Of a stretch of DNA of 32,000 bases, positions 420 to 14,140 are shown piece by piece. Source of the stretch: Gallaecimonas kandeliae. GTDB lineage: Bacteria; Pseudomonadota; Gammaproteobacteria; Enterobacterales; Gallaecimonadaceae. The stretch's first letter is position 1; every line of letters begins with the position of its first letter. The stretch is from assembly GCF_030450055.1 (NCBI RefSeq), contig NZ_CP118480.1:801415-833414 (forward strand), written 5' to 3'. The notes beneath the pieces are model-generated. The model made no database searches. It was not told the DNA's origin and worked only from the letters and a program-made list of their open reading frames with translations. The translations under genes were made by a program, and so were the position numbers.

Positions 420-1480
420 ATACGCAATGAATTATTTGTATGAATTTGTACCGTCACTGATGCTGTTATGTTGCTGTTTTGTGTCTTTTGACTGTGCCGT
501 CCTCCATCGGTAAGGTTTTTCCTTGGCTAGCTGGAGGTATTCCCTGAGCGTCTGGAGGCTGGAGTGCTTCCGGCTCGCTCCGGGCGGCGTGCCTTGGAGG
601 TTTAGTGGGGGTGTATTTTTTCTGATAGCGGAAAGGGATTTTGCTTATCCTTTATAAACAGTGACTTACATTTATTTCGCTGTTCTCGTTTAGAAGAGTC
701 GCCTGATTTAAAAGTTAAAGAATATCTTTTTATTATATTTGCCATGTTTCATTTGTCTGACGAATGACGTCACTAGTATGACCAGTGTATCAGGTATCGT
801 TTCTATATCGACTTTCTTTTATTTTCCTCGATGCGGATTTTAATTCTTGTAAATTTCATTGGCCTTTTTGTCGTCAAATTCTCTATAGATAATAGGGCCT
901 TTATTTTTAAATCAAGGTGGTGTTTGTTCTGCGACTGCTTGATCCTCCCATCTTCATCCTGGCGATGGGGTTGGCTGGCCTTACCCTCATCAACTAGAGG
1001 GTGGTAGTGTTGATGACTGTTTAGTTGTTGTATTCCAAGTGATTTTTATTGGCTTATACTTTATTAAGTGATTGCTGATTTGCTTGGTTGTTGCCGTGCT
1101 GGCTGCTTGGTGTGTATTTGTTTAGAACTTTTTTGAAGTTTTTTTTGTTTTTATGTTCCATTTTGTTATTTTTGGTTTTATCTTGGGGGCGGGTTTTTGC
1201 GGGGGCTTTTAAAAGGCTTTTGGCCTTGCCGTTGCTGCGTTTGTCGTTGGCTTTTGAGCAGGATTTTGGGGTCTTTTTCAATATCGTTCAAATGTGACTT
1301 TCGTCAAAAAATGCGGATCATCTTCATTGGGTTATGAAAATAAATTGATCTTTACCTGTTAAAAGTTCGGTGCTATCCATATTGCCGTCGTAAGCGAAGT
1401 GCGCTGCAGTTGCGACCACTATCGGATAGCAGTTCTTCCGAATCAAAACAACATTAAGAAAACATTAAGGGTGGATTAAC
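420..1480. other. About 1 kb of AT-rich non-coding DNA with a strongly G+T-skewed top strand (about 960-1300)
   Basis: Visibly much lower GC than the flanking DNA. The only ORFs of 60 aa or more (1054-1281 minus, 1088-1297 plus) are low-complexity K-rich or F/L-rich translations of T-runs. Confidence 0.6.
1364..1442 (+). promoter_or_regulatory. Conserved 5' leader element of cassette A (motif AGTTCGGTGCTATCC plus long-range stem)
   Basis: TTCGG-TGCTATCC (1366-1378) can pair with GGATAGCA (1424-1431) and CCGAA (1438-1442) across a 6-nt internal loop. The same architecture occurs in cassette B. Confidence 0.4.
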
Positions 1481-1483
1481 TCC

Positions 1484-2434
1484 ATGAATAAGAAGAACGT
1501 CTTGAACGCAGTTCTCCTCGCTTTGGGCTGCGGCCTTGCCATGTCCAGCTACGCTGGTGCCATCAAGGCCGACGCCAACTCTACCTACAAGCCGACCGGT
1601 AAAGGCTGGGGCGAGCTGGTTCCCCCCAACTATCTCCACAACGAAGCCTCCCAGGCCCGTGCCTCCAAGCATGGCGGTGGTGGTACAACCAACGGCATCT
1701 CTTACCACGGTGGCCCCGTGATGCTGGGCACCACCAACATCTACTACATCTGGTACGGCAACTGGAGCGGTTACAGCGCTGCCAAGACCATACTGCCTGA
1801 TCTGATGCCTGGCCTGTCCGGCTCTCCGATCTTCAACATCAACACCAGCTACTACGATGGCAACAACAACCACGTAGCCAACAGCGTCAACCTGGTCAGC
1901 CAGGTAAGCGACAGCGGCTCCCAGGGCACAGTGCTGGATGACAATGCCGTCCAGACCATCGTGGCCAACGCCATCAACAACCTGGGCTTGCCCATGGACA
2001 CCAACGCCCTCTACTTCGTGCTGACCGCTCCTGACGTCCAGGAAACCAGCGGCTTCGGTTCTCAGTATTGCGGCTGGCACACCAAGGGCACCATCAACGG
2101 CCAGACTGTCAAGTACTCCTTCGTGGGCAACCCCGTTACCCAGGCTCCCTCTGGTTGCGGCGCGAACAATCCCTCCCCGAACGGCGACGCCGGCGCTGAC
2201 GCCATGGCCAGTATCATGTTCCACGAGCTGTCCGAAACGGTTACCGATCCCGAGCTGAACGCCTGGTATGACACCCGCGGCAACGAAAACGCTGACAAGT
2301 GTGCTTGGACCTTCGGTACCACTTACACCACCAGCAACGGCGCCAAAGCCAACGTCAACCTGGGCGGCCGCGACTGGCTGCTGCAGCAGAACTGGCTGAA
2401 CGCTAACGGTGGTTCATGCGTCCTGTCCTACTAA
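1484..2434 (+). CDS. Secreted EXORDIUM/PHI-1 (Phi_1)-like protein, paralog A (316 aa)
   Basis: ATG preceded by AAGGGTGGA. Signal peptide MNKKNVLNAVLLALGCGLAMSSYAG. Family blocks: SYHGGPVM, YYIWYGNW, VLTAPDVQETSGFGSQYCGWH, KYSFVGNP...SGCG, PNGDAGADAM, TDPELNAWYD, ADKCAWTFG, GGRDWLLQQNW...GGSC. Four conserved Cys residues. Confidence 0.9.
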   Translation: MNKKNVLNAVLLALGCGLAMSSYAGAIKADANSTYKPTGKGWGELVPPNYLHNEASQARASKHGGGGTTNGISYHGGPVMLGTTNIYYIWYGNWSGYSAAKTILPDLMPGLSGSPIFNINTSYYDGNNNHVANSVNLVSQVSDSGSQGTVLDDNAVQTIVANAINNLGLPMDTNALYFVLTAPDVQETSGFGSQYCGWHTKGTINGQTVKYSFVGNPVTQAPSGCGANNPSPNGDAGADAMASIMFHELSETVTDPELNAWYDTRGNENADKCAWTFGTTYTTSNGAKANVNLGGRDWLLQQNWLNANGGSCVLSY

Positions 2435-2859
2435 TAGGTAGGCGTCTGATGTTGGCAGCCAGCCTGTTGCTGGCTGCCACCACCCAGGCAGATCCCCTTC
2501 CCGCTGGGAAGGGGATCAACATCATGACGCGCTACATGAAAGTCTTCGGCGAGCTGGAAAACACCCTGCTGGCCGCCCAGCTGTCTGGCGACAGTCAGCG
2601 TATCGGCCAACTGCTGGATCCCCTCTTCGAGGCCAATTTCACCAGCGGAGCGCCGTCCCTGCACAAGCCTGACATGCTGAAGCAAAAAGCCAGCGCCCGG
2701 CAGTGGAGCCTCTCCAGCCTCAAGGTCTATGAGGTCGGGCCCAACGCCATCGCCTACCTGACCCTCTCTGCCCGCGACGCCAGCGACCGTCACCTGGTGG
2801 ATGTCTGGGTTCCCCATGGCAAGGATTGGCAGCTGAGGCTGAGGTTTGAGTCCCCATGA
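2416..2859 (+). CDS. Secreted NTF2-like (DUF4440/SnoaL-like) small protein, paralog A (147 aa)
   Basis: ATG 2416 overlaps the upstream stop by 19 nt. Signal peptide ...LLLAATTQA|DPLP. The layout (helical N-terminus, then 'DPLFEANFTSG', then C-terminal 'HLVDVWVPHGKDWQLRLRFE') is typical of NTF2-like/DUF4440 proteins. Confidence 0.85.
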   Translation: MRPVLLIGRRLMLAASLLLAATTQADPLPAGKGINIMTRYMKVFGELENTLLAAQLSGDSQRIGQLLDPLFEANFTSGAPSLHKPDMLKQKASARQWSLSSLKVYEVGPNAIAYLTLSARDASDRHLVDVWVPHGKDWQLRLRFESP

Positions 2860-2868
2860 GGGGAGGTA

Positions 2869-2893
2869 GAAAAGGACCCTTGAGGTCCTTTTC
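2869..2893 (+). terminator. Rho-independent terminator of cassette A
   Basis: AAAGGACC(2871-2878)/GGTCCTTT(2884-2891), loop CTTGA, followed by a T-run. Confidence 0.75.
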
Positions 2894-2939
2894 TAATGCC
2901 GTAATTGTTTGTCTAATGCCGTAATTGCTTGTCTAATGG
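2892..2939. repeat. 20-bp tandem direct repeat, about 2.4 copies (TCTAATGCCGTAATTGYTTG)
   Basis: Unit at 2892-2911, unit at 2912-2931 (1 mismatch), partial unit at 2932-2939. Confidence 0.85.
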
Positions 2940-2946
2940 TGATTTT

Positions 2947-3067
2947 TTGACCTGTCTTGCAACTCTGTAAGCCCGACTATCCCCTTCTGAAGTTCGCTGC
3001 TATGCCTAGTGCATCGCAAGCACGAGCTGCTGTTGTGATACCTCTCGAATAGCTGTTCATTTCGAAC
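2947..3067 (+). promoter_or_regulatory. Conserved upstream block and leader of cassette B
   Basis: TTGACCTG..GCAAC (2947-2963) lies exactly 45 nt upstream of GTTCGCTGCTATGCC (2992-), the same spacing as in cassette C. GTTCG-CTGCTAT (2992-3003) can pair with ATAGCTG (3049-3055) and CGAAC (3063-3067). Confidence 0.4.
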
Positions 3068-3105
3068 CAAACCAATCTCAAAATATTCAAGGGTGGACTC
3101 ACTCC

Positions 3106-4056
3106 ATGAAGAAGCAGAACGTTATGAACGCAGTACTCCTCGCTCTGGGCTGCGGCCTGGCTCTCTCCAGCTACGCCGGCGTCGTCAAGAGCGACAGCAA
3201 TTCCGTTTATCGCCCCACAGGTAAGGGTTGGGGGGAACTGGTACCTCCCAGTGTCATCCATAGCCAATCCGGGAAGGCCAGAGGGGGCAAGCACGGCGGT
3301 GGTGGCAGCGGTAACGGCATCTCCTACCACGGCGGCCCCGTGATGCTGGGGACAGTCAACGCCTACTACATCTGGTACGGCAACTGGAGCGGCTACAACA
3401 GCGCCAAGAACATACTGCCCGACCTCATCACCGGCCTGAACGGGTCATCCATCTACAACATCAACAACAGCTATTACGACGGCAACAACAACCATGTGTC
3501 CAACAGCGTCAACCTGGCCGGCCAGGTGAATGACAGCGGCTCCAGGGGCACAGTGCTGGGGGATTCTGACATCCAGGCGATAGTGGCCAATGCCATCAAC
3601 AACCTGGGTCTGCCTCAAGACACCAACGCCGTCTACTTCGTACTGACAGCCCCTGACGTCCAGGAAACCAGCGGCTTCGGTAGCCAGTACTGCGGTTGGC
3701 ACACCAAGGGCACCATCAACGGCCAGACCATTAAGTACTCCTTCGTGGGCGACGCCGTGACCCAGGCACCGAGCGGCTGCGGCGTCAACAATCCTTCGCC
3801 CAACGGTGACGGCGGCGCCGATGCCATGGCCAGCGTCATTTTCCACGAGTTGTCCGAGGCGGTGACCGACCCCGAGCTGAACGCCTGGTATGATACCCGC
3901 GGCTACGAGAACGCCGACAAGTGTGCCTGGACCTTCGGCAGCACTTACACCACCGGCAACGGCGCCACCGCCAACGTCAACCTGGGCGGCCGCGACTGGC
4001 TGCTGCAACAGAACTGGCTGAACGCCAATGGAGGCCTATGCACCCTGTCCTACTGA
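3106..4056 (+). CDS. Secreted EXORDIUM/PHI-1 (Phi_1)-like protein, paralog B (316 aa)
   Basis: Same SD and signal peptide as paralog A. Aligns with paralog A along its full length with no gaps noticed. Confidence 0.9.
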   Translation: MKKQNVMNAVLLALGCGLALSSYAGVVKSDSNSVYRPTGKGWGELVPPSVIHSQSGKARGGKHGGGGSGNGISYHGGPVMLGTVNAYYIWYGNWSGYNSAKNILPDLITGLNGSSIYNINNSYYDGNNNHVSNSVNLAGQVNDSGSRGTVLGDSDIQAIVANAINNLGLPQDTNAVYFVLTAPDVQETSGFGSQYCGWHTKGTINGQTIKYSFVGDAVTQAPSGCGVNNPSPNGDGGADAMASVIFHELSEAVTDPELNAWYDTRGYENADKCAWTFGSTYTTGNGATANVNLGGRDWLLQQNWLNANGGLCTLSY

Positions 4057-4484
4057 CAGGTAGGCGTCTGCTGTTGGCAGCCTGCCTGATGGGGCCGGCT
4101 GCCATGGCACAAACTGATCCCCTTCCCGCCGGGAAGGGGGTCAATGTGATGACCCGCTACATGAAGGTCTTCGGCGAGCTGGAAAACACCCTGCTGGCCG
4201 CCCAGCTGTCTGGCGACAGTCAGCGTATCGGCCAACTTCTGGATCCCCTCTTCGAGGCCAATTTCACCAGCGGAGCGCCTTCCCTGCACAAGCCTGACAT
4301 GCTGAAGCAAAAAGCCGGCACCCGGCAGTGGAGCCTCTCCAGCCTCAAGGTCTATGAGGTCGGCCCCAATGCCATCGCCTACCTGACGCTTTCAGCCCGT
4401 GACGCCAGTGACCGCCACCTGGTGGATGTCTGGGTTCCCCATGGCAAGGACTGGCAATTGCGCGTGCGCTTCGAATCCCATTGA
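4038..4484 (+). CDS. Secreted NTF2-like small protein, paralog B (148 aa)
   Basis: ORF-track start 3921 trimmed to ATG 4038 (MHPVLLTGRRLLL...), which is positionally equivalent to 2416 and 5642 and is preceded by GGAGG (4030-4034). The central ~250 nt is almost identical to paralog A. Confidence 0.85.
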   Translation: MHPVLLTGRRLLLAACLMGPAAMAQTDPLPAGKGVNVMTRYMKVFGELENTLLAAQLSGDSQRIGQLLDPLFEANFTSGAPSLHKPDMLKQKAGTRQWSLSSLKVYEVGPNAIAYLTLSARDASDRHLVDVWVPHGKDWQLRVRFESH

Positions 4485-4485
4485 G

Positions 4486-4507
4486 AGAAAGGACCGGTCC
4501 TTTTTTG
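4486..4507 (+). terminator. Rho-independent terminator of cassette B
   Basis: AAAGGACCGGTCCTTT palindromic hairpin followed by TTTTTT (to 4506). Confidence 0.7.
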
Positions 4508-4550
4508 TTGGTATCCCAGACCCGTTCTGTCTCCCTCCCGCAGTCGATTG

Positions 4551-4673
4551 TTGACCTGGCCCGCAACACGGTGGGACCAACTTTACCCACCCAAGGTTCG
4601 CTGCTATGCCTAAGGCATTGCTCGCATTTGCTGCAATAGTAGCCAATGCCTCTCCTTAGCCGTGCTGCAGCAC
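4551..4673 (+). promoter_or_regulatory. Conserved upstream block and leader of cassette C
   Basis: TTGACCTG..GCAAC (4551-4567), GTTCGCTGCTATGCC (4596-4610), hairpin AGGCATTG(4613-4620)/CAATGCCT(4644-4651), and the perfect palindrome GTGCTGCAGCAC (4662-4673). Confidence 0.4.
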
Positions 4674-4703
4674 CGGCATAACCATAAACAGTGGGATCTC
4701 GTC

Positions 4704-5660
4704 ATGAATAAGCAGAATGTCCTGAAAGCGGTTCTCCTTGCCTTGGGAACTTGCCTGGCGTTTGCCGGCCAGGCCGGCGTTGTCAAAACCGACGCCAATT
4801 CCGTTTATCGCCCCACGGGGAAAGGCTGGGGAGAGCTGGTACCCCCCAGTGCGCTTCATAGCCAAGCCGGTTATGCCAAAGGGGGCAAGCACAGTGGCGG
4901 TGGCGGCGGTAGCAACAACGGCATCTTCTACCACGGTGGACCCGTGATGCTGGGCACCAACCATGTCTACTACATCTGGTATGGCAACTGGAGTAACTAC
5001 AGTGCGGCAGAAGGCATACTGCCCGACCTCATCACAGGGTTGTCCGGCTCGCCCATCTACAACATCAACACCACTTATTACGACGGCAACAATCAAAATG
5101 TGTCCAACCAGGTCACCCTGGCCGGGCAGGTGACTGACAGCGGCTCCCTGGGGGCTGTGCTGGGAGATGCCGACATCCAGACCATAGTAGCCAATGCCAT
5201 CAATAACCTGGGGTTGCCTCTGGATACCAGCGGCGTTTACTTCGTGCTGACGGCGCCCGATGTGAAGGAAACCAGCGGCTTCGGCACCCAGTACTGCGGC
5301 TGGCACACCAGAGGTACCATCAAGGGCAAAACCATCAAGTATTCCTTCGTGGGCAACCCCGTAACCCAGGCGCCCTCCGGCTGCGGTGTGAATAGTCCGT
5401 CGCCGAACGGTGATGGCGGCGCCGATGCCATGGCCAGCGTCATCTTCCATGAGCTCTCAGAGGCGGTCACAGACCCCGAATTGAACGCCTGGTACGACAG
5501 GCGCGGCTATGAGAACGCCGACAAGTGCGCCTGGACCTTTGGCAGCACCTACACCACCAGCAATGGCGCCACAGCCAACGTCAGTTTGGGTAACCGTGAC
5601 TGGCTGTTGCAGCGCAACTGGGTCAATGCCAATGGAGGCCTATGCGCACTGTCCTACTGA
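4704..5660 (+). CDS. Secreted EXORDIUM/PHI-1 (Phi_1)-like protein, paralog C (318 aa)
   Basis: ORF-track GTG 4662 trimmed to ATG 4704 (MNKQNVLKAVLLALG...), which aligns with the starts of paralogs A and B. All family blocks and the 4 Cys residues are conserved. This is the most divergent paralog. Confidence 0.88.
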   Translation: MNKQNVLKAVLLALGTCLAFAGQAGVVKTDANSVYRPTGKGWGELVPPSALHSQAGYAKGGKHSGGGGGSNNGIFYHGGPVMLGTNHVYYIWYGNWSNYSAAEGILPDLITGLSGSPIYNINTTYYDGNNQNVSNQVTLAGQVTDSGSLGAVLGDADIQTIVANAINNLGLPLDTSGVYFVLTAPDVKETSGFGTQYCGWHTRGTIKGKTIKYSFVGNPVTQAPSGCGVNSPSPNGDGGADAMASVIFHELSEAVTDPELNAWYDRRGYENADKCAWTFGSTYTTSNGATANVSLGNRDWLLQRNWVNANGGLCALSY

Positions 5661-6082
5661 TAACCAAGCCGCTGCTGTTGGCGGCCTGCCTTTTGGGGCC
5701 TGCCGCCCTGGCTCAAAGCGATCCCCTTCCCGGTGGGAAGGGGGTCAATGTGATGACCCGCTACATGAAAGTCTTCGGTGAGCTGGAAAACCGCCTGCTG
5801 GCCGCGCAACTGTCTGGCGACGGTGAGCATCTCGGCCAGCTGCTGGACCCGCTCTTCGAGGCCAACTTCGCCAGCGGCGCCACGCTGTACAGGCCCGAGA
5901 TGCTGAAACAGCAGAGCCAGCACCAATGGAGCCTCTCCAGCCTCAAGGTGTACGAGGTGGGGCCCAATGCCATCGCCTACCTGACCCTGTCCGCCCGCGA
6001 CGCCAGCGACCGCCACCTGGTGGATGTCTGGGTGCCCAAGGGTAAGGACTGGCAGCTGCGGGTACGCTTCGAGTCCCCGTGA
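5642..6082 (+). CDS. Secreted NTF2-like small protein, paralog C (146 aa)
   Basis: ATG 5642 lies within ...AATGGAGGCCTATG..., overlapping the upstream gene by 19 nt. Signal peptide ...GPAALA|QSDPLP. Confidence 0.85.
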   Translation: MRTVLLITKPLLLAACLLGPAALAQSDPLPGGKGVNVMTRYMKVFGELENRLLAAQLSGDGEHLGQLLDPLFEANFASGATLYRPEMLKQQSQHQWSLSSLKVYEVGPNAIAYLTLSARDASDRHLVDVWVPKGKDWQLRVRFESP

Positions 6083-6098
6083 GGCGGGGGGCAGCATT

Positions 6099-6126
6099 GA
6101 AAAAAGGACCCTTGGGTCCTTTTTTA
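6099..6126. terminator. Bidirectional terminator shared by cassette C (+) and the lodB-like gene (-)
   Basis: AAAAAGGACCC(6101-6111)/GGGTCCTTTTT(6115-6125), 3-nt loop, with an A-run on one side and a T-run on the other. Confidence 0.8.
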
Positions 6127-6146: not shown

Positions 6147-7235
6147 TTACTGCCGGCGTTGCCAGAAGGGCTCCTGGCTGAATCGCCTGGGGCCCTGGTA
6201 GCTGGCCTTGAGGTGCCAGAGGTAGCGCTGGGTTACCGCCTGCATCTCCTGTTGGTAGGCGCCGAGGCCAAGGTCGGGATGATCCAGGCCGGCCTTGATC
6301 GCCTTAGTGGCGCTGGCCGCCGACGCGAGGGAGTGGAAGATCCCCTGGGAGGCGATGGGGTCGAAGGCCAACAGCGCATCTCCTATGGCCAAAAAACCGG
6401 GCCCAGCCTTGGGCAATTCCTCTACCGGCAACAGGGAAGTGCCAGCTGCCCGGCAGCGCAGCTGGGCCGGGGGGAGATCTGCCAGCACCTCGGCCAGCAG
6501 CGGGTGCTGCCTGGCCTTGGCGAGGAAGGCCTCGGGGCGGCGCAACTGGCGGCCTTGGGGATCATCCCCGTCCAGGTGGTAGGCCAGCACCCGTTGCCCT
6601 TGTGGCAGGGGCACTGTGTACCACCAGCCCTGGGCATCGGCCTGGAGGCGCAGGGTGCTGTCCTGGCGTTGAGATCCTTGCTCCAGGAAGCTGTAGAGGC
6701 AGAGCAGGGGATCCCCTGACTGGCGCTTGAGCCCCAGCTGGCGCCCCAGGCTGCCGCTGCGGCCGGTGGCGTCCACCAGCACTGGGGCCTGGAACCGGCC
6801 TTGGGGTGTTGCCAGTTGCCATAGGCCCTGGTGGTGGCGGATGTCGCTCGGGGCGCAGCCTTCCAACAAGTCAGCACCGGCCTCCAGGGCCCGTTGGCGC
6901 AGCATGGCTTCGAAACGGCCCCTGTCCAGGTGCCAGCCTGGGCCGGCCGGGTCGCGGATGGCGTCCTGCCACACCGGGCTCTCCTGGTCCCAGACGGCAA
7001 CGGCGCCGCCCCTTTCCCTGTGCCCCGCCTGCTGGAAGCGCTCCCAGAGTTGCAGGCGCTGCAACAGCACGGCCGTGGCGCCGGGCAGGGATTCGCCGAT
7101 GGGCGGGGCCTTGGCCGGCTGGGCGCGGCGCTCCAGCACCAGCACCCGCAGCTCCGGCCTGAGCATGGTGGCCAGGGCCAGGCCGGCCGGGCCAGCCCCG
7201 ACGATGATGGCGTCGAAGTGGCCTTGGCCTGCCAT
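6147..7235 (-). CDS. LodB-like FAD-dependent flavoprotein (putative CTQ-cofactor maturase of the upstream quinoprotein)
   Basis: N-terminal dinucleotide fold DAIIVGAGPAGLALA. C-terminal flavoprotein GD motif FLAIGDALLAFDPIASQG. The ATG at 7235 shares one nt with the lodA-like TGA (TGATG); the ORF track shows TTG at 7238. Synteny lodA-like then lodB-like. Confidence 0.85.
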   Translation of the reverse strand: MAGQGHFDAIIVGAGPAGLALATMLRPELRVLVLERRAQPAKAPPIGESLPGATAVLLQRLQLWERFQQAGHRERGGAVAVWDQESPVWQDAIRDPAGPGWHLDRGRFEAMLRQRALEAGADLLEGCAPSDIRHHQGLWQLATPQGRFQAPVLVDATGRSGSLGRQLGLKRQSGDPLLCLYSFLEQGSQRQDSTLRLQADAQGWWYTVPLPQGQRVLAYHLDGDDPQGRQLRRPEAFLAKARQHPLLAEVLADLPPAQLRCRAAGTSLLPVEELPKAGPGFLAIGDALLAFDPIASQGIFHSLASAASATKAIKAGLDHPDLGLGAYQQEMQAVTQRYLWHLKASYQGPRRFSQEPFWQRRQ

Positions 7236-9076
7236 CAATCGCGGCGCCGCTGGTTGATCAGCAGCTTGCGCATGCCCTTGTCGGTGTCATGGCGTTCCTG
7301 GGCTGTCATGGCCTGGCCGCCCCTGTCTTCCACCTGCATCACCGGCGGGAAGTCGGGGTCGCCCTGCACCCCGGGACGTACTTCCACCACCCCCATGTCG
7401 TCGAAGTGGGCCACCATGTTGGCGAGCTGGTTCTGGTAGCCCACCCCCAGGGTGCGGTCCCAGTCGGCCCTTTGTTGGTAGGCCGCCAGGCGCTCGGCTC
7501 GCGGCAGCGAACTGTCGATCACCTTGAGGTAGTTCTGTTCGCTCAGCACCTGGTTGGGCACCCGGGCCGGCCAGAAGGTGGGCAGGTAGGGGTCGTATTC
7601 CCTGTCGTAGCCGGAGCGGCAGCTGGCGGTATCGGTCTGCCAGGGGATGGCCATCCAACGGGTGATGGAGCCCGGCGACTGGCCGTACAGCGGGCCGTTA
7701 TAGGACAGGGCCATGGCCGGGGTCAGGGTGGTGCCATAATCCGGCTCAGGGTCACGGCCGTCGCGGTGGCGCAGCCGGTAGGGTTCCATGTACAGGGTGC
7801 TGTGCCGCACCGGCCAGGTCATCTCGCAGCCGGGGTGGAAGGCGTCGGCGATGCAGAATTCCAGGGCCGCCTTGTCCAGCATGGCCGGCTGCTCGGCCAA
7901 GGGCACCTGATCGATGCTGTGCGGCGGCTGGTGGTTGGGGTCGTAGTCCGCCTCAAAGTCCCCTTCTGCCCACTTGTCCAAGAGGGCCAACTGGGTGCGG
8001 GTGAGGGCGTTCATGGCGGCCGGCACCGGCGGCATGGGGATGTTCATGGCATCGCCGTAGACCCAGGGCCAGGGCTTCATGGAGATGTCGCCATCGTCCG
8101 GGTTGCGGAAGCTGTTGGCGACGGTGCGCCGCAATTCGGCATAGTTATCCCCCGGCTCGGCCAACTGGTGGAGGTAGCGGGGCTCGAGGAAATGCTGGGG
8201 CATGCCGTACCCGAAGCCGGCGTTGAAACCGGCGTTCATCCACTGCAGATCGCACATGGCCTTGAGGATGGGAAGGATGTCGTCGGTGAAGGAGGGCCTG
8301 ACCGGGGCCGGCAGCTGGCCGGCCTGGATGGCGACGTCCGTCATCAGCGCATAGAGGGTGCGCACCGATTTCTGCTGGGGGCCGTAGTTGGGAGGGGCTA
8401 CTACTACCCAGGCAGGAGCCACTTCCAGTGTCCGGCCATCCACCACCACCTTGGCCGTCACAGGGCCGTCGCTGGTGTCGTCATACCAGCCGTCGTTGTT
8501 GGCGAAAGTGGTGGGGGCCTGGCCCAGATAAGAGGCGGACTTGCCGTGGCCGCCGAAAACCAGCAGCCGGCCCTGGGGGTCGGTGCGCAGCTCCCCCAGG
8601 GGCACTTCGGTGCCCATGAAGGTGCCACCGTTGAACAGGTATTCGGGGCCCATGTCGGAGGCCATGTTGATGCTGCGCGGGCCTGGGGTGATGGCCAGCT
8701 GGTGCCTTTCTGGCAGCGGGATCTTGGCGTTACGGCGGGTGGAGGGGGCCGCCGCCGCTGCCTCCGGGATATCCAAGGCCAGTTCGAAGTTGTACCAGGC
8801 GGCCTTGTGGTTGGCCAGTTCCACCGACCAGGTGATCTGGGTGGACTCGTCCATGGTCAGTTCCCGCACCACCTTGCCTTGGCCGTCGTAGCCGTAGATG
8901 CGGAACTGGGCCACCTCGCGCTTGAGTGCACCGCTGGCGTCCCGATAGAAACCGGGCTCCTGGGGGTAGGGCTCCGTAACTTGGGGGCCCAGGTAGAAGC
9001 CGTTGGTGTCCTTGGAATTGCCGACCCGGGCTATGCCGATAGCGGGGTGGATCTTGGCGTAGGCTATTTCGCCCAT
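7235..9076 (-). CDS. LodA/GoxA-family CTQ-dependent amino-acid oxidase (613 aa)
   Basis: N-terminus KIHPAIGIARVGNS, and later FHPGCEMTWP and WMAIPWQTDTASC, are the hallmark blocks I recall for LodA-like quinoproteins (the Cys and Trp that form cysteine tryptophylquinone). Strong SD AAGGAG. Confidence 0.88.
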   Translation of the reverse strand: MGEIAYAKIHPAIGIARVGNSKDTNGFYLGPQVTEPYPQEPGFYRDASGALKREVAQFRIYGYDGQGKVVRELTMDESTQITWSVELANHKAAWYNFELALDIPEAAAAAPSTRRNAKIPLPERHQLAITPGPRSINMASDMGPEYLFNGGTFMGTEVPLGELRTDPQGRLLVFGGHGKSASYLGQAPTTFANNDGWYDDTSDGPVTAKVVVDGRTLEVAPAWVVVAPPNYGPQQKSVRTLYALMTDVAIQAGQLPAPVRPSFTDDILPILKAMCDLQWMNAGFNAGFGYGMPQHFLEPRYLHQLAEPGDNYAELRRTVANSFRNPDDGDISMKPWPWVYGDAMNIPMPPVPAAMNALTRTQLALLDKWAEGDFEADYDPNHQPPHSIDQVPLAEQPAMLDKAALEFCIADAFHPGCEMTWPVRHSTLYMEPYRLRHRDGRDPEPDYGTTLTPAMALSYNGPLYGQSPGSITRWMAIPWQTDTASCRSGYDREYDPYLPTFWPARVPNQVLSEQNYLKVIDSSLPRAERLAAYQQRADWDRTLGVGYQNQLANMVAHFDDMGVVEVRPGVQGDPDFPPVMQVEDRGGQAMTAQERHDTDKGMRKLLINQRRRD

Positions 9077-9228
9077 CTGTCACTCCTTTGTCCTGGTGGT
9101 TTCCGGCTTGGCCTTGGCCCTGCGGGCACAGGCCTAAGCCCTGGTCATCCCTGAAAGCGACAGCCTGACGGTTCAGAGGTGGGTTTTATAAAAAGATACG
9201 ATAAAACAAAGTCTTGTCTATCCGTATT

Positions 9229-9711
9229 TCAAGCCTGTTCCAGCCCGGCGATGTCGAGCTTCTTCATTTGCAGCAGGGCCTGCATCACCCTGGGGGCCCG
9301 GGTGGGGTCCGCCATCAGTTCCGGTAGGCGCCTCGGCACCACCTGCCAGCTGAGTCCGAAGCGGTCCTTCAGCCAGCCACATTGTTGGGACTCAACAGGG
9401 CCATCCTGGCCAAGGGCCTCCCAGAAATAATCGATCTCCTGCTGGGTGTCGCAGCACAGCTGCAGGGAAATGGCCTCGTTGAGTTTGAAGGCGGGCCCGC
9501 CGTTCAGCGCCGTAAAGGCCTGGCCGTCCAGTTCAAAGGCAACTGTCATGACACTCCCTGCTGGCCTGTGGTGGATCTCCTGGCCTGCGTCGGGATAACG
9601 GGTAATGGCAGTCAGGGCGGCATTGGGAAAGACGCTGCAGTAGAAGCGGGCGGCCGTTTCGGCCTGATCATCGAACCAGAGGCAGGGGACTATGGATTGG
9701 AGCTGTGCCAT
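9229..9711 (-). CDS. PhnB-like VOC-superfamily protein (3-demethylubiquinone methyltransferase-domain type), 160 aa
   Basis: MAQLQSIVPCLWFDDQAETAARFY... and ...QQCGWLKDRFGLSWQVVP blocks. ORF-track start 9849 trimmed to ATG 9711, which is preceded by GAAAGGA. Confidence 0.85.
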   Translation of the reverse strand: MAQLQSIVPCLWFDDQAETAARFYCSVFPNAALTAITRYPDAGQEIHHRPAGSVMTVAFELDGQAFTALNGGPAFKLNEAISLQLCCDTQQEIDYFWEALGQDGPVESQQCGWLKDRFGLSWQVVPRRLPELMADPTRAPRVMQALLQMKKLDIAGLEQA

Positions 9712-9841
9712 GGGAGTTCCTTTCTCAAAGCGGGCATTTAAGGGTAGCGCAGAAAAGAAACAGTGCGGTGCGCAGATGCCATCCCTGGCCCGCTCGCTTT
9801 TGGCTATGCTGGGGTGGCTTTCCAACCACAAGGACGAGACC

Positions 9842-10489
9842 ATGCCCATTCTTTACGGTGTACCCATGTCATCCTTTGTGCGCAAGGCCATGCTGGCCCT
9901 GACCCATAAAGGCATTTCCTACCGCTTCCAGCCCGCCATTCCCGGCAGTGACGATGCTGACTTCCGGGAGGCCAGCCCCCTCGGCAAGGTGCCGGCGTTC
10001 CGTACCGACGACGGTTTCGGCTTTGCCGACTCTTCGGTGATCATCGCCTACCTGGAGAAGACGAACAGCAACAACAGCCTCTATCCGGCGGCGGCCAACG
10101 ACTATGCCTGGGCCCTCTGGCTGGAAGAATACGGCGACACCAGGATGATGGAGGCCACCGGCGGGCTCTACTTCCAGAAGGTCATAGGCCCGGCCTACTT
10201 CGGCCATACGACGGATCCGGAGCGGGTCAGGGAGCTGAGCGAAAAGCTGGTGCCGGCGGTGCTGGACTACATGGAGTCCCAACTCAGGCAAGGGGCCTGG
10301 CTGGTGGGGGACGAACTCAGCGTGGCCGATCTGGCCCTGGCCTCCAACCTGGCCAACCTCCACTACTGCGACTACGACATCAGCCCGGCCCGCTGGCCCA
10401 AGCTGGCGGACTTCAAGGCCCGCCTCTGGGCCCTGCCCTTGATGCAGGCGCAGATGGAGCTGGAGGCCCAGGCCTTCGCCATGGCCTGA
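9842..10489 (+). CDS. Glutathione S-transferase family protein (215 aa)
   Basis: MPILYGVPMSSFVRKAMLAL...PLGKVPAF is an N-terminal thioredoxin-like GST fold, followed by a helical C-terminal domain. Start trimmed to ATG 9842, which has the SD AAGGACGAG. Confidence 0.85.
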   Translation: MPILYGVPMSSFVRKAMLALTHKGISYRFQPAIPGSDDADFREASPLGKVPAFRTDDGFGFADSSVIIAYLEKTNSNNSLYPAAANDYAWALWLEEYGDTRMMEATGGLYFQKVIGPAYFGHTTDPERVRELSEKLVPAVLDYMESQLRQGAWLVGDELSVADLALASNLANLHYCDYDISPARWPKLADFKARLWALPLMQAQMELEAQAFAMA

Positions 10490-10951
10490 TCAGCCGGTGT
10501 TGATGCGGGTGTCGAACTTCTCCCTTTTCAAGGAGATCAGGGTGCGGAACTTCTTGAGGTTGGCCTCGGCGTACAGCACCCTGTCGCAGAAGGCCTCGTA
10601 GGAAGGCATGTCCGGCACCATGCAGATCAGCACGAAATCCACCTCCCCCGTGACCTGGTAGCATTGCTTGACCTCGGGGGAGGCCAGGGCCCGCTGCAAG
10701 AAGCGCTGGTTCATGGCCTTGTTGTCCCGCTCCATCTCCACCTCCACCACCATGTGCAGGTAGGGCCCGAACTTCTCCGGCACCAACAGTGCCACCTCTT
10801 TCTGGATATAGCCCTGAGCCTTAAGGCGTTTCACCCGCTTCAGGCAGGCCGGCGGCGACAGCCCCACCTGCTGGGCCAGTTGCAGGTTGGTCTGGCTGCA
10901 GTCGCTTTGCAGGCTGCTGAGGATGGCTTTGTCGATACGGTCCAATGGCAT
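10490..10951 (-). CDS. Lrp/AsnC-family transcriptional regulator
   Basis: LDRIDKAILSSLQSDCSQTNLQLAQQVGLSPPACLKRVKRLKAQGYI is a winged helix-turn-helix, followed by a RAM/AsnC_trans_reg C-terminal domain. Confidence 0.9.
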   Translation of the reverse strand: MPLDRIDKAILSSLQSDCSQTNLQLAQQVGLSPPACLKRVKRLKAQGYIQKEVALLVPEKFGPYLHMVVEVEMERDNKAMNQRFLQRALASPEVKQCYQVTGEVDFVLICMVPDMPSYEAFCDRVLYAEANLKKFRTLISLKREKFDTRINTG

Positions 10952-11094
10952 AGGAGTGGGTTAATAAAGTTTCTTTTTTGTCTTTATAAAAGAATTTAAG
11001 AAAAAGGGAAGGGCGTTTTTGACGACATATTTTTCGGCCTCCTTCCTAGAATAGCGATCTCTCCCAGGCCCCTGGCTGCCACTAGGAAGATCCC

Positions 11095-12087
11095 ATGCCC
11101 CTGCTCAAGTCCGTGTTCTCAGAAGCCTTCGCCATAGGGCGCCGTGCCGCCAGCCTCTACCTGATGCTGCTGAAGATCATGGTGCCGGCCCTGGTGATCA
11201 TCAAGGCCCTGGATCTGCTGGGATGCACCCAGTGGCTGGCCTGGCTACTGTCGCCGCTGATGCAGCTGATGGGCCTGCCCGACAGCCTGGGTGTGGTCTG
11301 GGCCACTGTCATGCTCACCAACATCTACACCGCCATGGTGGTGTTCTTCCAAGTGGCGGGCAGCGAGCCTTTGACCACGGCCCAACTCACAGTGCTGGGC
11401 AGCCTGATGCTGCTGGCCCACTTCCTGCCGGTGGAAGGGGCCGTGGCCAGGCGCGCCGGCGTGCCCTGGCACCTGACCCTGATGCTGCGCATCGGCGGCG
11501 CCCTGTTGCTCGGCAGCCTGCTCAACGCCCTTTATTCCGCCACCGGTTGGCTGCAGGAGCCGGGCACCGTGCTTTGGCCCTTCCGGGACGGCGGCGAGGC
11601 GGGCCTGGTGGCCTGGGGGCTGGGTCAGCTCAAAACCCTGCTGTGGATATTGCCCACCATAGCGGCGCTGCTGACCCTGCTTCGGCTGCTTCATCTCTTG
11701 GGCATAGAGAAGGCCATCCATTGGCTGCTGTTCCCGCTGTTGCGGCTGATGGGCATAGGCCGGGCGGCGGCCAATGTCACCATAGTCGGGGTGACCCTGG
11801 GGCTGACCTACGGTGCCGGCATGCTGATCGAGGAGGCCCGTTCCGGCAAACTGAGCCGGCGCGACGTCATGCTGACCTTGGCCTTCCTGGGGCTTTGCCA
11901 CAGCGTCATCGAAGACACCCTGCTGGTGCTGCTGGTGGGGGCCGATCTCAGCGGCATCCTCTGGGCCAGGCTGGCCTTTGCTGTGCTGGTGGTCAGCCTG
12001 CTGGCCAGGCTGCCTTGGCCGGGACGGCGCCGGGTGCCCGCATCCGCCGAATTGGACAGTCCCGTTAAGCTTGAAAGCGAAGGGTGA
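11095..12087 (+). CDS. Polytopic membrane protein with nucleoside-recognition (Gate)-like domains
   Basis: 330 aa with multiple TM segments. The N-terminal pattern ...LKIMVPALVIIKALDLLG...LSPLMQLMGLP resembles Gate-domain proteins. Divergent from the Lrp-like regulator. Confidence 0.8.
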   Translation: MPLLKSVFSEAFAIGRRAASLYLMLLKIMVPALVIIKALDLLGCTQWLAWLLSPLMQLMGLPDSLGVVWATVMLTNIYTAMVVFFQVAGSEPLTTAQLTVLGSLMLLAHFLPVEGAVARRAGVPWHLTLMLRIGGALLLGSLLNALYSATGWLQEPGTVLWPFRDGGEAGLVAWGLGQLKTLLWILPTIAALLTLLRLLHLLGIEKAIHWLLFPLLRLMGIGRAAANVTIVGVTLGLTYGAGMLIEEARSGKLSRRDVMLTLAFLGLCHSVIEDTLLVLLVGADLSGILWARLAFAVLVVSLLARLPWPGRRRVPASAELDSPVKLESEG

Positions 12088-12220
12088 TGCTGGTTTTGCC
12101 AGGCTGTTAAGCGCGCGCCCCTGGGCTGGCCGGAGCGGCATTTTGTCTCTTTTATTTCAAGAAACGCCCGATGTGGCCGACTCTTGTTGACAGGATCCCT
12201 CTTCGATTTGGGCAAAGCAC

Positions 12221-14140
12221 ATGAGCCGTTTTTTGGAAAACCTGTCGGTCGCGGCCAAGTTGGGCTGGGGCTTCGGCATAGTGCTGCTGCTGACCATAGT
12301 GGTGGCCGGGGCCGGTAGCCGGGGCCTGGGCGCCGTCATGGATCGCAGCGAAAAAGTGGGGATCGGCGGCCAGCTCAACAAGATGTTGATGGACGCCGAA
12401 CTCAGCCGCCGCGACTTCCTTGTGTCGGGCAGCCAGGAAGACGCCGACCGCCTTGACGGTGCCGTGACGCGTATCAAGCAGGAAGTGGACGCCAAGGCCG
12501 GGCTCTTCAGCGTTCCCCAAGACAAGGCCCGCCTGGCCGCCGTCGACAAGCTGGCCGGCCAATACCGCCAGGATTTCGGCCAGCTCAAGCAGCTGTTCAA
12601 GGACAAGGCGGCCATCCGCGGCAGTTGGGTCAAGGTGGGCAACACCATGGTCGGCAAGCTCAACGACCTCAATGCCAGTCTCAGCCAGATGGCCGAACTT
12701 ACCGCCGACGAGGCCCTGGTCCGCAACGCCCTTATCGCCGGCCAGATCAACCAGCAGGTCGCCATGCTGCGCTACCACATGCGCGGCTACATCTTCGACG
12801 GCAGCGCCAAGAACCTGGACGCCGCCGTCAGCACCATGGCCGCCATCGAGAAGTCGGCCGCCACCCTCAACATCGGCGGCGGTGATCAGGCCACCCTGGA
12901 CCAGGCCCTGCAGGCCCTGTCCGGTTATCGCGACCATGTGAAGCGGCTCAACAAGGTGGTGGACCAGATGGCCGAGCTGCACCGGCGCCTTGACGGCGAC
13001 GCCAAGCAGTTGACCGAGCAGATGGACGAGTTGGTCCAGGGGCAGTCGCAAAAGCGCCTGGCCGACGGCCGGCAGGCCACCTGGCTGCTGTTGGGGGTGA
13101 GCCTGGCCGCCTTGCTGCTTGGCGTCTTTGCCGCCTGGAGCATCAGCCGCCAGATAGTGCGGCCGCTGCGCGAGACGGTGAAGGTGGCCCAGACCATAGC
13201 GGACGGCAACCTGGCCACCCGTATCCACAGCCAGCGCAAGGACGAACTGGGTGAGCTGATGCTGGCCATGGCCCACATGAACGACACCCTGCGCGAGCTG
13301 ATGGGTCAGATCGGCGCCAGCGTCTCCCAACTGGCGGCTTCCGCCGGGCAGTTGTCGGCGGTGGCCGAGCAGAACAGCGCCGGCATGCAGCGCCAGCGCA
13401 GCGAGACCGATCAAGTGGCGACCGCCATCAACGAAATGACCGCCACAGTCCAGGAAGTGGCCCGCAACGCCGAACTGGCCGCCGTGGCCGCCAGCGAAGC
13501 CGACCACACCACCCAGCAGGGCAACCAGGTGGTGGCCAGGGCCGTCCAGCAGATAGAGTTGCTGGCCAGGGAGGTGGGGAGCTCTGCCCAGTCCATGGAG
13601 CAGCTCAAGAGCGAGACCGACAGCATCGGCAAGGTGCTGGACGTGATCAAGGCGGTGGCCGAGCAGACCAACCTGCTGGCCCTCAACGCCGCCATAGAGG
13701 CGGCCAGGGCCGGCGAGGCCGGGCGTGGCTTCGCGGTGGTGGCCGACGAGGTCCGTGGCCTGGCGGGCCGTACCCAGCAATCCACCCAGGAGATCGAAGC
13801 CCTGATCGCCAACCTGCAGCAAGGCAGCCAGTCCTCCTTGCTGATGATGGAGAAGAGCCGTGGCATCTCAGAAGACACTGTGGCCCTGGCCCAGGAGGCC
13901 GGCACCATGCTCGGCGAGATCGCCAACGCCGTGTCGCGGATCCAGGACATGAACCACCAGATCGCCACCGCCGCCGAAGAGCAGAGCACGGTGGCCGAGG
14001 ACATCAACCAAAGCGTGGTGCGGGTACGGGAGATCGCCGAGCAGGCGGCGGCCGCCTCGGAGGAAACGGCCAATGCCACCGAGGGCCTGGCAGGCCTCGG
14101 TGGCGAATTGCAGGGCCTGGTGGCCAGGTTCAAGATTTAA
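12221..14140 (+). CDS. Methyl-accepting chemotaxis protein with a large (~255 aa) helical periplasmic sensor
   Basis: Two TM segments, a HAMP region, and the highly conserved signalling hairpin ...[38 protein letters not shown].... Confidence 0.95.

Follow-up and report, generated by a model that had tools for sequence, protein, structure and literature searches.

Tandem triplication of an EXORDIUM-family and NTF2-like gene pair in Gallaecimonas kandeliae, with a candidate active site in the bacterial large protein

Three head-to-tail units of approximately 1.6 kb each fill positions 1364–6126 of a 32 000-nucleotide stretch of the chromosome of the marine bacterium Gallaecimonas kandeliae, referred to here as the window. 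Each unit is built of a leader of ∼120–160 nt, a large gene encoding a protein of the Phi_1 family (PF04674), to which the plant EXORDIUM/PHI-1 proteins belong, a small gene encoding an NTF2-like protein of the DUF4440 family (PF14534), and a hairpin followed by a T-run. The start of the small gene lies 19 nt before the large-gene stop in all three units, and each unit would be a self-contained operon encoding two paired extracytoplasmic proteins. We tentatively interpret this pair as a Sec-exported, disulfide-bonded and probably metal-dependent hydrolase together with a periplasmic NTF2-like binding partner, a chaperone or an inhibitor, whose copies would be kept for dosage or mild specialisation.

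A tandemly triplicated two-gene cassette with leader, overlap and terminating hairpin had initially been proposed from the nucleotide sequence of the window and a list of its open reading frames (ORFs), and this original prediction of the anatomy was borne out, as the repeats, the ORFs and the hairpins are all present, the middle hairpin being weak. Three-copy direct-repeat families extend over the whole of positions 1364–6126, with start-to-start spacings of 1622–1625 and 1598–1604 nt and nucleotide identities of 62–92%.

All three large proteins matched Phi_1 far above the Pfam cut-off of 25 (104.8–108.9 bits, E = 4e-31 to 7e-30, profile positions 2–236 of 276), confirming the predicted EXORDIUM relationship. 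An alignment with eight plant sequences likewise showed a motif and cysteine framework in common with the founding plant members (YHGG, WYG, CGxH, DGM, T[DN]P and a C-terminal Cys). The bacterial branch of the family is large, comprising 5,235 representatives at 50% identity with E ≤ 1e-3, of which 828 have E ≤ 1e-30, and the large protein is unusually conserved for a secreted protein, being 50–60% identical across six phyla. Every family-invariant residue is retained in all three copies. Longer Phi_1 relatives carry an N-terminal Phi_1 domain followed by TIG, Fn3, Big, He_PIG, CHB_HEX_C_1, NHL or FG-GAP domains. NCBIfam holds no model for either the large or the small protein, and no sequence relative of known structure was found for either.

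The three small proteins scored 33.0–36.5 bits with PF14534 (cut-off 25.2, E ∼ 1e-8), and the AlphaFold2 (AF2) model of the small protein of unit 1, with a predicted local distance difference test (pLDDT) score of 84.5 and values of 94–98 for the larger part of the domain from residue 41 onwards (87 at residues 71–80), agreed with the NTF2-like assignment that had been made from its layout, an α+β cone fold with three helices against a curved antiparallel sheet. Foldseek retrieved 322 Protein Data Bank (PDB) matches at E ≤ 1e-3, the NTF2-like fold being recognized at E ∼ 1e-6 with a probability of 1.0; the leading matches were 2r4i, SgcJ, the CaMKII hub and AtzH, and they pointed to no closer functional subfamily. 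Across the partner family the polar residues T38, E48, D59, E72, D129 and R143 are invariant. In the public annotation small gene 3 has its full length (146 aa), whereas small genes 1 and 2 are called from an internal Met, giving 111-aa products that lack the signal peptide. The sequence favours the long form for all three small genes, because the N-terminal region is conserved in 35/36 homologues and a GGAGG or GGTGG lies 5′ of the first ATG.

Both proteins are predicted to be exported, in line with the original prediction. Their N-termini consist of a basic stretch, 12–15 hydrophobic residues and an AxA-like site, and a signal-peptide-like N-terminus recurs in 35/36 partner homologues despite their sequence divergence. 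In the large family, residue conservation was counted over the best 150 Phi_1 representatives at 50% identity; the cysteines C192 and C∼221 occur together in 106/150 of these and are jointly absent from 42/150, with two exceptions, and in a set of 120 closer homologues 97 have both, 23 have neither and none is mixed. This covariation is therefore indicative of a disulfide and thus of an oxidising compartment. The Gallaecimonas clade itself lacks the C192/C221 pair and keeps four of the six framework cysteines. Export of the large protein is further suggested by the fused domains of its longer relatives, which are typical of extracellular proteins.

Conservation of the pairing and selection on the copies

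The closest relatives of the large protein (74–78% identity) are encoded by Gallaecimonas sp. GXIMD1310, Microbulbifer hainanensis and a metagenome contig. These three loci have different flanking genes; each combines one Phi_1 gene with a DUF4440 gene behind it, the overlap again being 19 nt. A wider survey covered 80 more distant loci (48–65% identity, one genome per species), in which the partner was searched for with a hidden Markov model. It was located directly downstream and on the same strand in 30 loci of Beta- and Gammaproteobacteria and in one Terriglobia locus, and on the opposite strand in one Acidobacteriales locus. All beta- and gammaproteobacterial loci with enough downstream DNA carried it, and 36 loci in total, nearly all of them beta- or gammaproteobacterial, had a partner. 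A first clustering had placed the partner in 58/80 loci, a figure rejected as an artefact of out-of-frame ORFs overlapping the Phi_1 genes, after whose exclusion 36 remained. Approximately 43 homologous loci of Acidobacteriota, Myxococcota, Actinomycetota and Chloroflexia were found to have no partner, so that the pairing, which had been called obligate, is confined to one part of the family.

Where the pair occurs, the distance matrices of the two proteins are strongly correlated (38 pairs; Mantel r = 0.71, reached by 0/2000 permutations), which indicates that the two genes are co-inherited and evolve together. Divergence is faster in the partner, whose mean p-distance is 0.61 versus 0.36 for the large protein over the same 38 pairs and whose nonsynonymous divergence (dN) between Gallaecimonas species is 0.43 versus 0.16. 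As the neighbour-joining tree of Phi_1 was poorly resolved, it was not used to infer one or several gains of the partner.

The right flank of the cassette, consisting of a GGDEF gene and the gene for DNA polymerase II, is syntenic with that of Gallaecimonas sp. GXIMD1310, which has one pair; this places the amplification in the G. kandeliae lineage alone. Synonymous divergence (dS) among the copies amounts to 0.62–1.15 for the large gene and 0.31–0.61 for the small gene, which argues that the triplication is not recent. In all comparisons among the three copies both genes are under purifying selection, with dN/dS values of 0.13–0.20 for the large gene (0.20 for copy 2 versus copy 1, 0.13–0.15 for copy 3 versus copies 1 and 2) and 0.18–0.21 for the small gene. 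The predicted triplication thus stood, whereas the divergence of the copies, which had been counted in favour of an effector function, reflects purifying selection and not diversification. Origin from a mobile element or plasmid was considered and rejected in view of the syntenic right flank and only two weak matches among 72,556 plasmids. Tandem Phi_1 duplicates that have no NTF2-like gene were also observed in five loci of Myxococcota and Acidobacteriota (L027, L028, L032, L045 and L070 of our loci L001–L083), so duplication seems to be a habit of the family that recurs independently.

Candidate active site and predicted fold

Four residues of the large protein, H199, D239, E268 and C273, are invariant in the 150 representatives. 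C196 is present in 149 and D271 in 148 of them, E248, D255 and C225 each in 147, and H247 and E251 each in 143. In order to compare bacteria with plants, eight EXO/PHI-1/EXL sequences from the supplement of PMC2661892 were aligned with bacterial sequences of six phyla. All aligned bacteria share the pattern ...DxMxSxxxHE[LI]xExx[TS]DP..NAWYD..G.E[NS]ADKC..., the central part of which reads H247-E248-x-x-E251-x-x-[TS]-D255-P and is variable at position +10. In contrast, all eight plant proteins follow ...DGMxxxx[AG]xxLA[GAN]xxTNP...GY[YF]QG...LEAxxxC..., retaining C196, H199, D239, E268 and C273 and lacking H247, E248, E251, D255 and D271; over the central motif they show [ST][LM]LAG..TNP..GYYQG..LEAxxAC opposite the S/E-rich bacterial HELxE..TDP..NAWYD..ENADKC. 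Residues that are near-invariant in bacteria and cleanly absent in plants would, at the level of sequence, correspond to the pattern usually seen with an enzyme and a derivative that is non-catalytic.

In other respects the bacterial and plant proteins remain close. They are homologous over nearly the whole domain (∼107 bits with Pfam; PF04674, IPR006766), both are secreted via a signal peptide, which on the bacterial side is predicted, and they share YHGG, WYG, CG-x-H, DGM and T-[DN]-P as well as the cysteines C196, C225, C273 and C312. Besides the residues of the central motif, the differences concern an N-terminal P-x-G-[KR]-G motif and linker added in the bacterial proteins of diderm phyla, the NTF2-like gene, with which the plant genes are unpaired, and the C192/C221 pair, lost in the Gallaecimonas clade.

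The AF2 model of the large protein (copy 1; pLDDT 81.4, predicted template modelling score 0.78) comprises a strand at residues 82–91, a helix at 98–111, a strand at 130–143, a helix at 153–166, strands at 175–181, 197–204 and 207–214, and a long helix at 236–254, which bears H247-E248-x-x-E251 and ends just before D255-P256. This predicted succession, β-α-β-α-β-β-β and then a long helix, matches the element order of adamalysin/ADAM-type metzincin catalytic domains, with HExxH on the last helix. The Phi_1 helix likewise would present His-Glu at positions i and i+1 and a metal-capable residue at i+4, and would end at an Asp-bearing turn. Metzincins dominated the top fold matches in two libraries, none of them significant. 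In a Foldseek search against the PDB (best E 0.04, TM about 0.3, nothing significant) the top forty matches were almost all metzincins, including ADAMTS4, ADAM17, fragilysin and InhA2, and in an independent library of viral models the top matches, again not significant, included ulilysin, a granulovirus metalloproteinase, M34, SprT-like and matrixin. Phi_1 differs from metzincins in having HExxE and not HExxHxxGxxH/D, in lacking a Met-turn and in giving no significant structural or sequence score. By analogy, the resemblance may indicate a possible way of working, and not membership.

Other catalytic assignments were considered for the large protein and rejected. A weak but recurring local similarity was noticed between residues 260–283 (2261–2332 in copy 1), AWYD..G.ENADKCAWTFG..NG, and residues 257–295 of microbial transglutaminase. 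Pfam Transglut_prok matched 16/120 Phi_1 homologues (best E = 5.5e-4) and PDB entry 1iu4 gave E = 0.3. A relation to that enzyme was dismissed as evidence on function, since its catalytic His274 aligns with Phe277 and the fold search did not return it. A free catalytic cysteine was discarded as well, the C192/C221 covariation and the even number of conserved cysteines pointing to disulfides.

A further motif was observed at the N-terminus of the large protein, [LV]-x-P-x-G-[KR]-G, which here reads Y-[KR]-PTGKGWGE and occupies residues 35–43 (window 1586–1612, 3208–3234 and 4806–4832), after the signal peptide and before a variable Gly-rich linker. Nearly all proteobacterial homologues and the majority of those from Acidobacteriota and Myxococcota have it, and in L012 and L040 it occurs twice. 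Plants lack it, as do 9/9 actinobacterial homologues, the Chloroflexia homologue, the three homologues from Blastocatellia and the one from Pyrinomonadaceae. A role as propeptide, sorting signal or docking site is conceivable.

Proposed function and rival explanations

In the explanation that we favour, the large protein would be a secreted hydrolase, most likely metal-dependent, with a putative site formed by H199, D239, H247-E248-x-x-E251, D255, E268 and D271 on a zincin-like α/β scaffold, in which H-E-x-x-E would take the place of the H-E-x-x-H helix of zincins. The NTF2-like protein would be translated from the overlapping start, exported to the periplasm and bound stoichiometrically to the large protein as a dedicated helper; in this capacity it would either be a chaperone that folds or holds the large protein, or inhibit the enzyme and so keep it silent until its exit from the periplasm. 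The three copies would have arisen by tandem duplication in the G. kandeliae lineage and been kept by purifying selection, which points to a higher dosage or mild sub-functionalisation and not to an arms race. A bolder extension is that bacterial Phi_1 proteins are the catalytically competent form of EXORDIUM, a hitherto unrecognised and very widespread family of secreted zincin-like metallohydrolases with an H-E-x-x-E...D site, controlled in proteobacteria by a dedicated periplasmic NTF2-like inhibitor or chaperone, and that plant EXORDIUM/PHI-1 proteins are pseudoenzymes derived from it, in which the scaffold persists and the catalytic residues are gone. This extension is conceivable, although we consider it doubtful.

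Several observations weigh against the favoured explanation. Diderm Acidobacteriota and Myxococcota manage without the partner, and no Phi_1 + NTF2-like fusion was found among 270 homologues, whose C-terminal extensions are Ig-like domains. The zincin and metzincin motifs HExxH and HExxHxxGxxH/D are not present, the second His being Glu in 143/150, and the region downstream of the motif contains no conserved Met that could form a Met-turn, the invariant residues there being W261, E268, D271 and C273. No sequence-level link was found between the Phi_1 protein and peptidase or hydrolase families, and neither of the two fold searches made with the predicted model reached a significant score to hydrolases. 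A common site for H247, E251 and D255 or H199, a superposition of the HExxE helix on the zincin helix, and binding between the two proteins are putative.

The principal rival to a catalytic role is a non-catalytic pair, in which Phi_1 would be a binding or structural protein of the envelope, as is commonly supposed for plant EXORDIUM, for instance a glycan or metal module, the NTF2-like protein a co-receptor or adaptor, and the His and acidic residues a structural metal or ligand site. No activity is known for any Phi_1 family member, the invariant aromatic residues Y87, Y91, W94, Y123, Y177 and W261 together with the acidic residues would suit binding of a ligand or Ca2+, the fusions to Ig-like, NHL and FG-GAP domains are as typical of surface binders as of enzymes, and the hydrolase fold matches are not significant. 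However, a near-invariant H-E-x-x-E...D helix over thousands of sequences with a clean loss in plants is the classic pattern of enzyme and pseudoenzyme, and since H199, D239 and E268, all retained in plants, would be enough for a structural site, the extra bacterial residues need another explanation. We therefore regard a non-catalytic pair as unlikely. Slightly less likely still is a two-step periplasmic pathway, in which the NTF2-like protein would be an enzyme or small-molecule carrier for the product or substrate of Phi_1 and no stable complex would form. SnoaL, limonene epoxide hydrolase, AtzH and lipid-binding NTF2-like proteins offer models of such enzymes and carriers, and the fold matches of the small protein indeed include the NTF2-like enzymes AtzH and SgcJ, a putative dehydratase and a bile-acid dehydratase. 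The invariant polar residues of the partner family, the frequency with which operon partners catalyse consecutive steps, and a Liv-type ATP-binding cassette (ABC) importer adjoining the pair in eight betaproteobacterial loci would all be in keeping with this pathway. Yet most of the conserved residues, namely D59, F71-E72, D129-x-W131 and W138, are generic to the DUF4440/SnoaL scaffold and form no recognisable catalytic set; the transporter neighbours differ, being of the Liv type in one lineage, of the MacB type in Microbulbifer and lacking in Gallaecimonas; and a role in protein binding would explain the faster evolution of the partner no less well.

An effector/immunity module, as put forward in the original prediction, is the least supported explanation and in our judgement a very improbable one. 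Phi_1 would then be an antibacterial or self-damaging periplasmic toxin, the NTF2-like protein its immunity protein and the triplication a diversification of specificity. As in polymorphic-toxin loci of the Imm-NTF2 kind, a small NTF2-like gene directly follows a larger one whose product is predicted to be exported. The small gene is translationally coupled, both products are predicted to reach the same compartment and the partner evolves faster than the large protein; NTF2-like folds of the Imm-NTF2 families do serve as immunity proteins in polymorphic-toxin systems. On the other hand, dN/dS values of 0.13–0.21 in both genes give no sign of diversifying selection, and the identity across six phyla and the thousands of cluster representatives given above are housekeeping-like and not polymorphic. 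The large protein is a stand-alone Sec protein, with no domain or neighbour of the Rhs, contact-dependent inhibition, type VI or type VII secretion, or LXG type in the window or in the 83 loci, it occurs without the NTF2-like gene in the ∼43 loci mentioned above, and Phi_1 is almost absent from plasmids. In the absence of linked delivery domains or secretion systems, and with the pairing limited to one family part, the effector/immunity claim is not supported; its milder version, an enzyme with an inhibitor or partner, is plausible.

The preferred explanation, a hydrolase with a dedicated periplasmic helper, has parallels in two known types of operon. Periplasmic inhibitors of the serralysin type bind their enzyme and protect the periplasm. 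In their operons (AprA–AprI in Pseudomonas, Inh in Dickeya/Erwinia and SmaPI in Serratia) the hydrolase gene adjoins that of a small periplasmic protein with a signal peptide, as would be the case here; those inhibitors, however, are β-barrel proteins of MEROPS family I38 whereas the Phi_1 partner is NTF2-like, and those proteases leave by type I secretion whereas Phi_1 is predicted to use Sec. In the LipA–Lif systems of Pseudomonas and Burkholderia, a Sec-exported, disulfide-bonded exoenzyme is accompanied by a dedicated periplasmic steric chaperone, an arrangement that the Phi_1 pair may resemble. In five loci of Oxalobacteraceae (Rugamonas, Duganella and Massilia), the pair is indeed followed on the same strand by a gene for a Lif-like membrane-anchored protein and then by one for a DsbC-like isomerase. 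These extended operons lie at positions 5941–9303 of L033 and also in L037, L053, L054 and L056. In the three loci scanned, the Lif-like protein matched the proteobacterial lipase-chaperone family with E = 1e-9, 1.9e-8 and 6e-4. No lipase gene was found near the Lif-like gene in the five loci. The Oxalobacteraceae operon places the Phi_1 protein among disulfide-bonded exoproteins with dedicated periplasmic folding helpers. Against too wide a reading of it, the Lif/DsbC association is that of a single lineage and one event, and neither the window nor the other loci contain a Lif-like gene. Phi_1 further differs from LipA in that the cargo is not an α/β-hydrolase lipase and has no conserved Ser nucleophile, S189 being conserved in 98/150 only, for which reason a serine hydrolase, an idea that came from the Lif-like foldase, was rejected; the NTF2-like protein, for its part, is unrelated to Lif. 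By analogy, the Phi_1/NTF2-like pair may work like the protease/inhibitor or lipase/foldase operons, and it is a member of neither, as the component families differ.

In plants, work on EXORDIUM/PHI-1 proteins as brassinosteroid- and carbon-responsive cell-wall proteins goes back more than twenty years. The bacterial branch offers what plants do not, namely a candidate active site, a conserved operon partner and, in one lineage, folding factors, and with these features the 'function unknown' of EXORDIUM becomes testable on an easily expressed bacterial protein. Taken together, the same features lead to the prediction of a derived, non-catalytic state for the plant proteins. In terms of bacterial genomics, the pair constitutes a conserved two-gene exoprotein module from families annotated only as 'hypothetical' and 'NTF2 family'. 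The literature search on bacterial EXORDIUM homologues returned nothing beyond the mention of one homologue in Solibacter in the 2009 EXO paper (PMC2661892) and a 2026 paper, in which bacterial homologues are noted and the biochemical activity of EXO/EXL is still called unknown, as had been assumed for the family at the outset. No paper in the searched literature names PF04674 together with PF14534/DUF4440, in agreement with the earlier supposition that the pairing is undescribed. Relative to this literature, the conserved operon partner, the bacterial-specific motif that is absent in plants and the Lif/DsbC-containing variant appear to be new.

Fine structure of the locus and neighbouring genes

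All genes and elements of the cassette are on the + strand. The leader of unit 1 (1364–1483) aligns with leaders 2 and 3, and repeat family D4 begins at 1471. It is followed by large gene 1 (1484–2434; PVT67_03790), which encodes a 316-aa Phi_1/EXORDIUM protein (PF04674 107.4 bits, E = 1.1e-30) with 100% identity to the G. kandeliae protein P0001, and by small gene 1 (2416–2859) with a GGTGG just 5′ of its ATG, encoding the 147-aa NTF2-like/DUF4440 partner (PF14534 33.4 bits). A terminator-like hairpin at 2868–2894 (−17.6 kcal/mol, z −4.7, z-scores expressing folding energy against shuffled sequences) and a UUUUCU stretch complete the unit. Immediately behind this terminator, a 20-nt tandem repeat ctaatgccgtaattg[tc]ttgt of approximately 2.5 copies was noticed at 2893–2942, which is absent after units 2 and 3.

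Unit 2 begins with a leader at 2944–3105, which aligns with the other leaders and whose first part belongs to repeat family D8 (2944–3030 versus 4548–4634 at 71%). Large gene 2 (3106–4056; PVT67_03800) encodes a 316-aa Phi_1 protein (108.9 bits) with 81% amino acid identity to copy 1, and small gene 2 (4038–4484), preceded by a GGAGG 3 nt 5′ of the ATG, encodes a 148-aa NTF2-like partner (33 bits) with 90% amino acid identity to that of small gene 1. The terminator-like hairpin of this unit (4485–4506; U6 run) is weak, with −7.3 kcal/mol and a z-score of −0.9. In unit 3, the leader (4548–4703), also aligned with the others and part of family D8, precedes large gene 3 (4704–5660; PVT67_03810), for which the ORF lister starts at GTG 4662 and ATG 4704 was used by alignment with the other two copies. 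Its 318-aa Phi_1 product (104.8 bits) is 76–82% identical to those of copies 1 and 2 at the amino acid level. Small gene 3 (5642–6082) encodes a 146-aa NTF2-like partner (36.5 bits) identical to P0121, which is annotated as 'nuclear transport factor 2 family protein', and the terminator hairpin at 6100–6125, detected by a terminator scan with an 11-bp stem (−13.8 kcal/mol, z −3.0), also faces a convergent goxB-like gene. The unit-end hairpins are homologous, being of the AAAGGACC...GGTCCTTTT type followed by a T-run in all three units.

A conserved leader core of ∼87 nt (repeat family D8) is common to the units. A search of Rfam gave no match at E ≤ 1 and the leader is not conserved at orthologous loci, and a riboswitch or other RNA element was consequently rejected in favour of a mere part of the duplicated unit. 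As the earlier reading by eye had suggested, the G+C content of the cassette (0.565–0.62) is below that of the downstream DNA (0.64–0.71), and the ORF-free upstream stretch is AT-rich at 0.40. This stretch of approximately 1 kb 5′ of unit 1 (window ∼450–1480), which compares with ∼0.63 for the window and contains no convincing ORF, could be a regulatory region, a silenced region or an insertion remnant.

Downstream of the cassette, positions 6147–9076 (− strand) carry two paired genes, one for a quinoprotein oxidase resembling LodA/GoxA and one for its flavoprotein maturase, which resembles LodB/GoxB. The oxidase gene (7235–9076, − strand) encodes 613 aa with LodA_N and LodA_C domains, its best NCBIfam match being GoxA with 419 bits (cut-off 750), and the maturase (363 aa) reached 188 bits (cut-off 400). 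Because both genes remain under the equivalog cut-offs, a substrate other than glycine or lysine is possible. The LodA-like nature of this neighbour, cited in the original prediction as an H2O2-generating oxidase, was thus confirmed by its domains; the gene pair is, however, absent from the orthologous loci of GXIMD1310 and Microbulbifer, and a functional link, with the support that it would have lent to an effector module, was rejected. The gene pair is part of an extra block of ∼8 kb (6147–14140) that G. kandeliae has relative to GXIMD1310 (L081) between the cassette and the conserved GGDEF/PolB genes, and that comprises the goxB/goxA-like, PhnB-like, glutathione S-transferase, AsnC-type regulator, Gate-domain membrane protein and HBM-type chemoreceptor genes.

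The neighbours in the window and in the 83 loci are otherwise unrelated, and include GGDEF, PolB, ABC importer, alcohol dehydrogenase and histidine kinase genes. The Liv-type ABC importer of the eight betaproteobacterial loci (Peripla_BP_6, two BPD_transp_2 permeases and two ATPases) is convergent to the pair, which it follows directly in five of them and at a distance of ∼2 kb in three (L005, L013, L017, L019, L020, L025, L047 and L057 together); it may represent lineage synteny or a link to product uptake. In Microbulbifer, a MacB-type exporter and AttH are divergent from the pair. A conserved transporter neighbour was rejected, since the type, or the lack of any in Gallaecimonas, varies by lineage.

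Finally, antisense ORFs of 187–264 aa were observed opposite the large genes in all units (1454–2224, 3445–4008 and 4656–5450, − strand), and the same ORFs opposite Phi_1 genes form clusters in 74 loci. They seem to be a side effect of the codon composition of GC-rich genes and not real genes.

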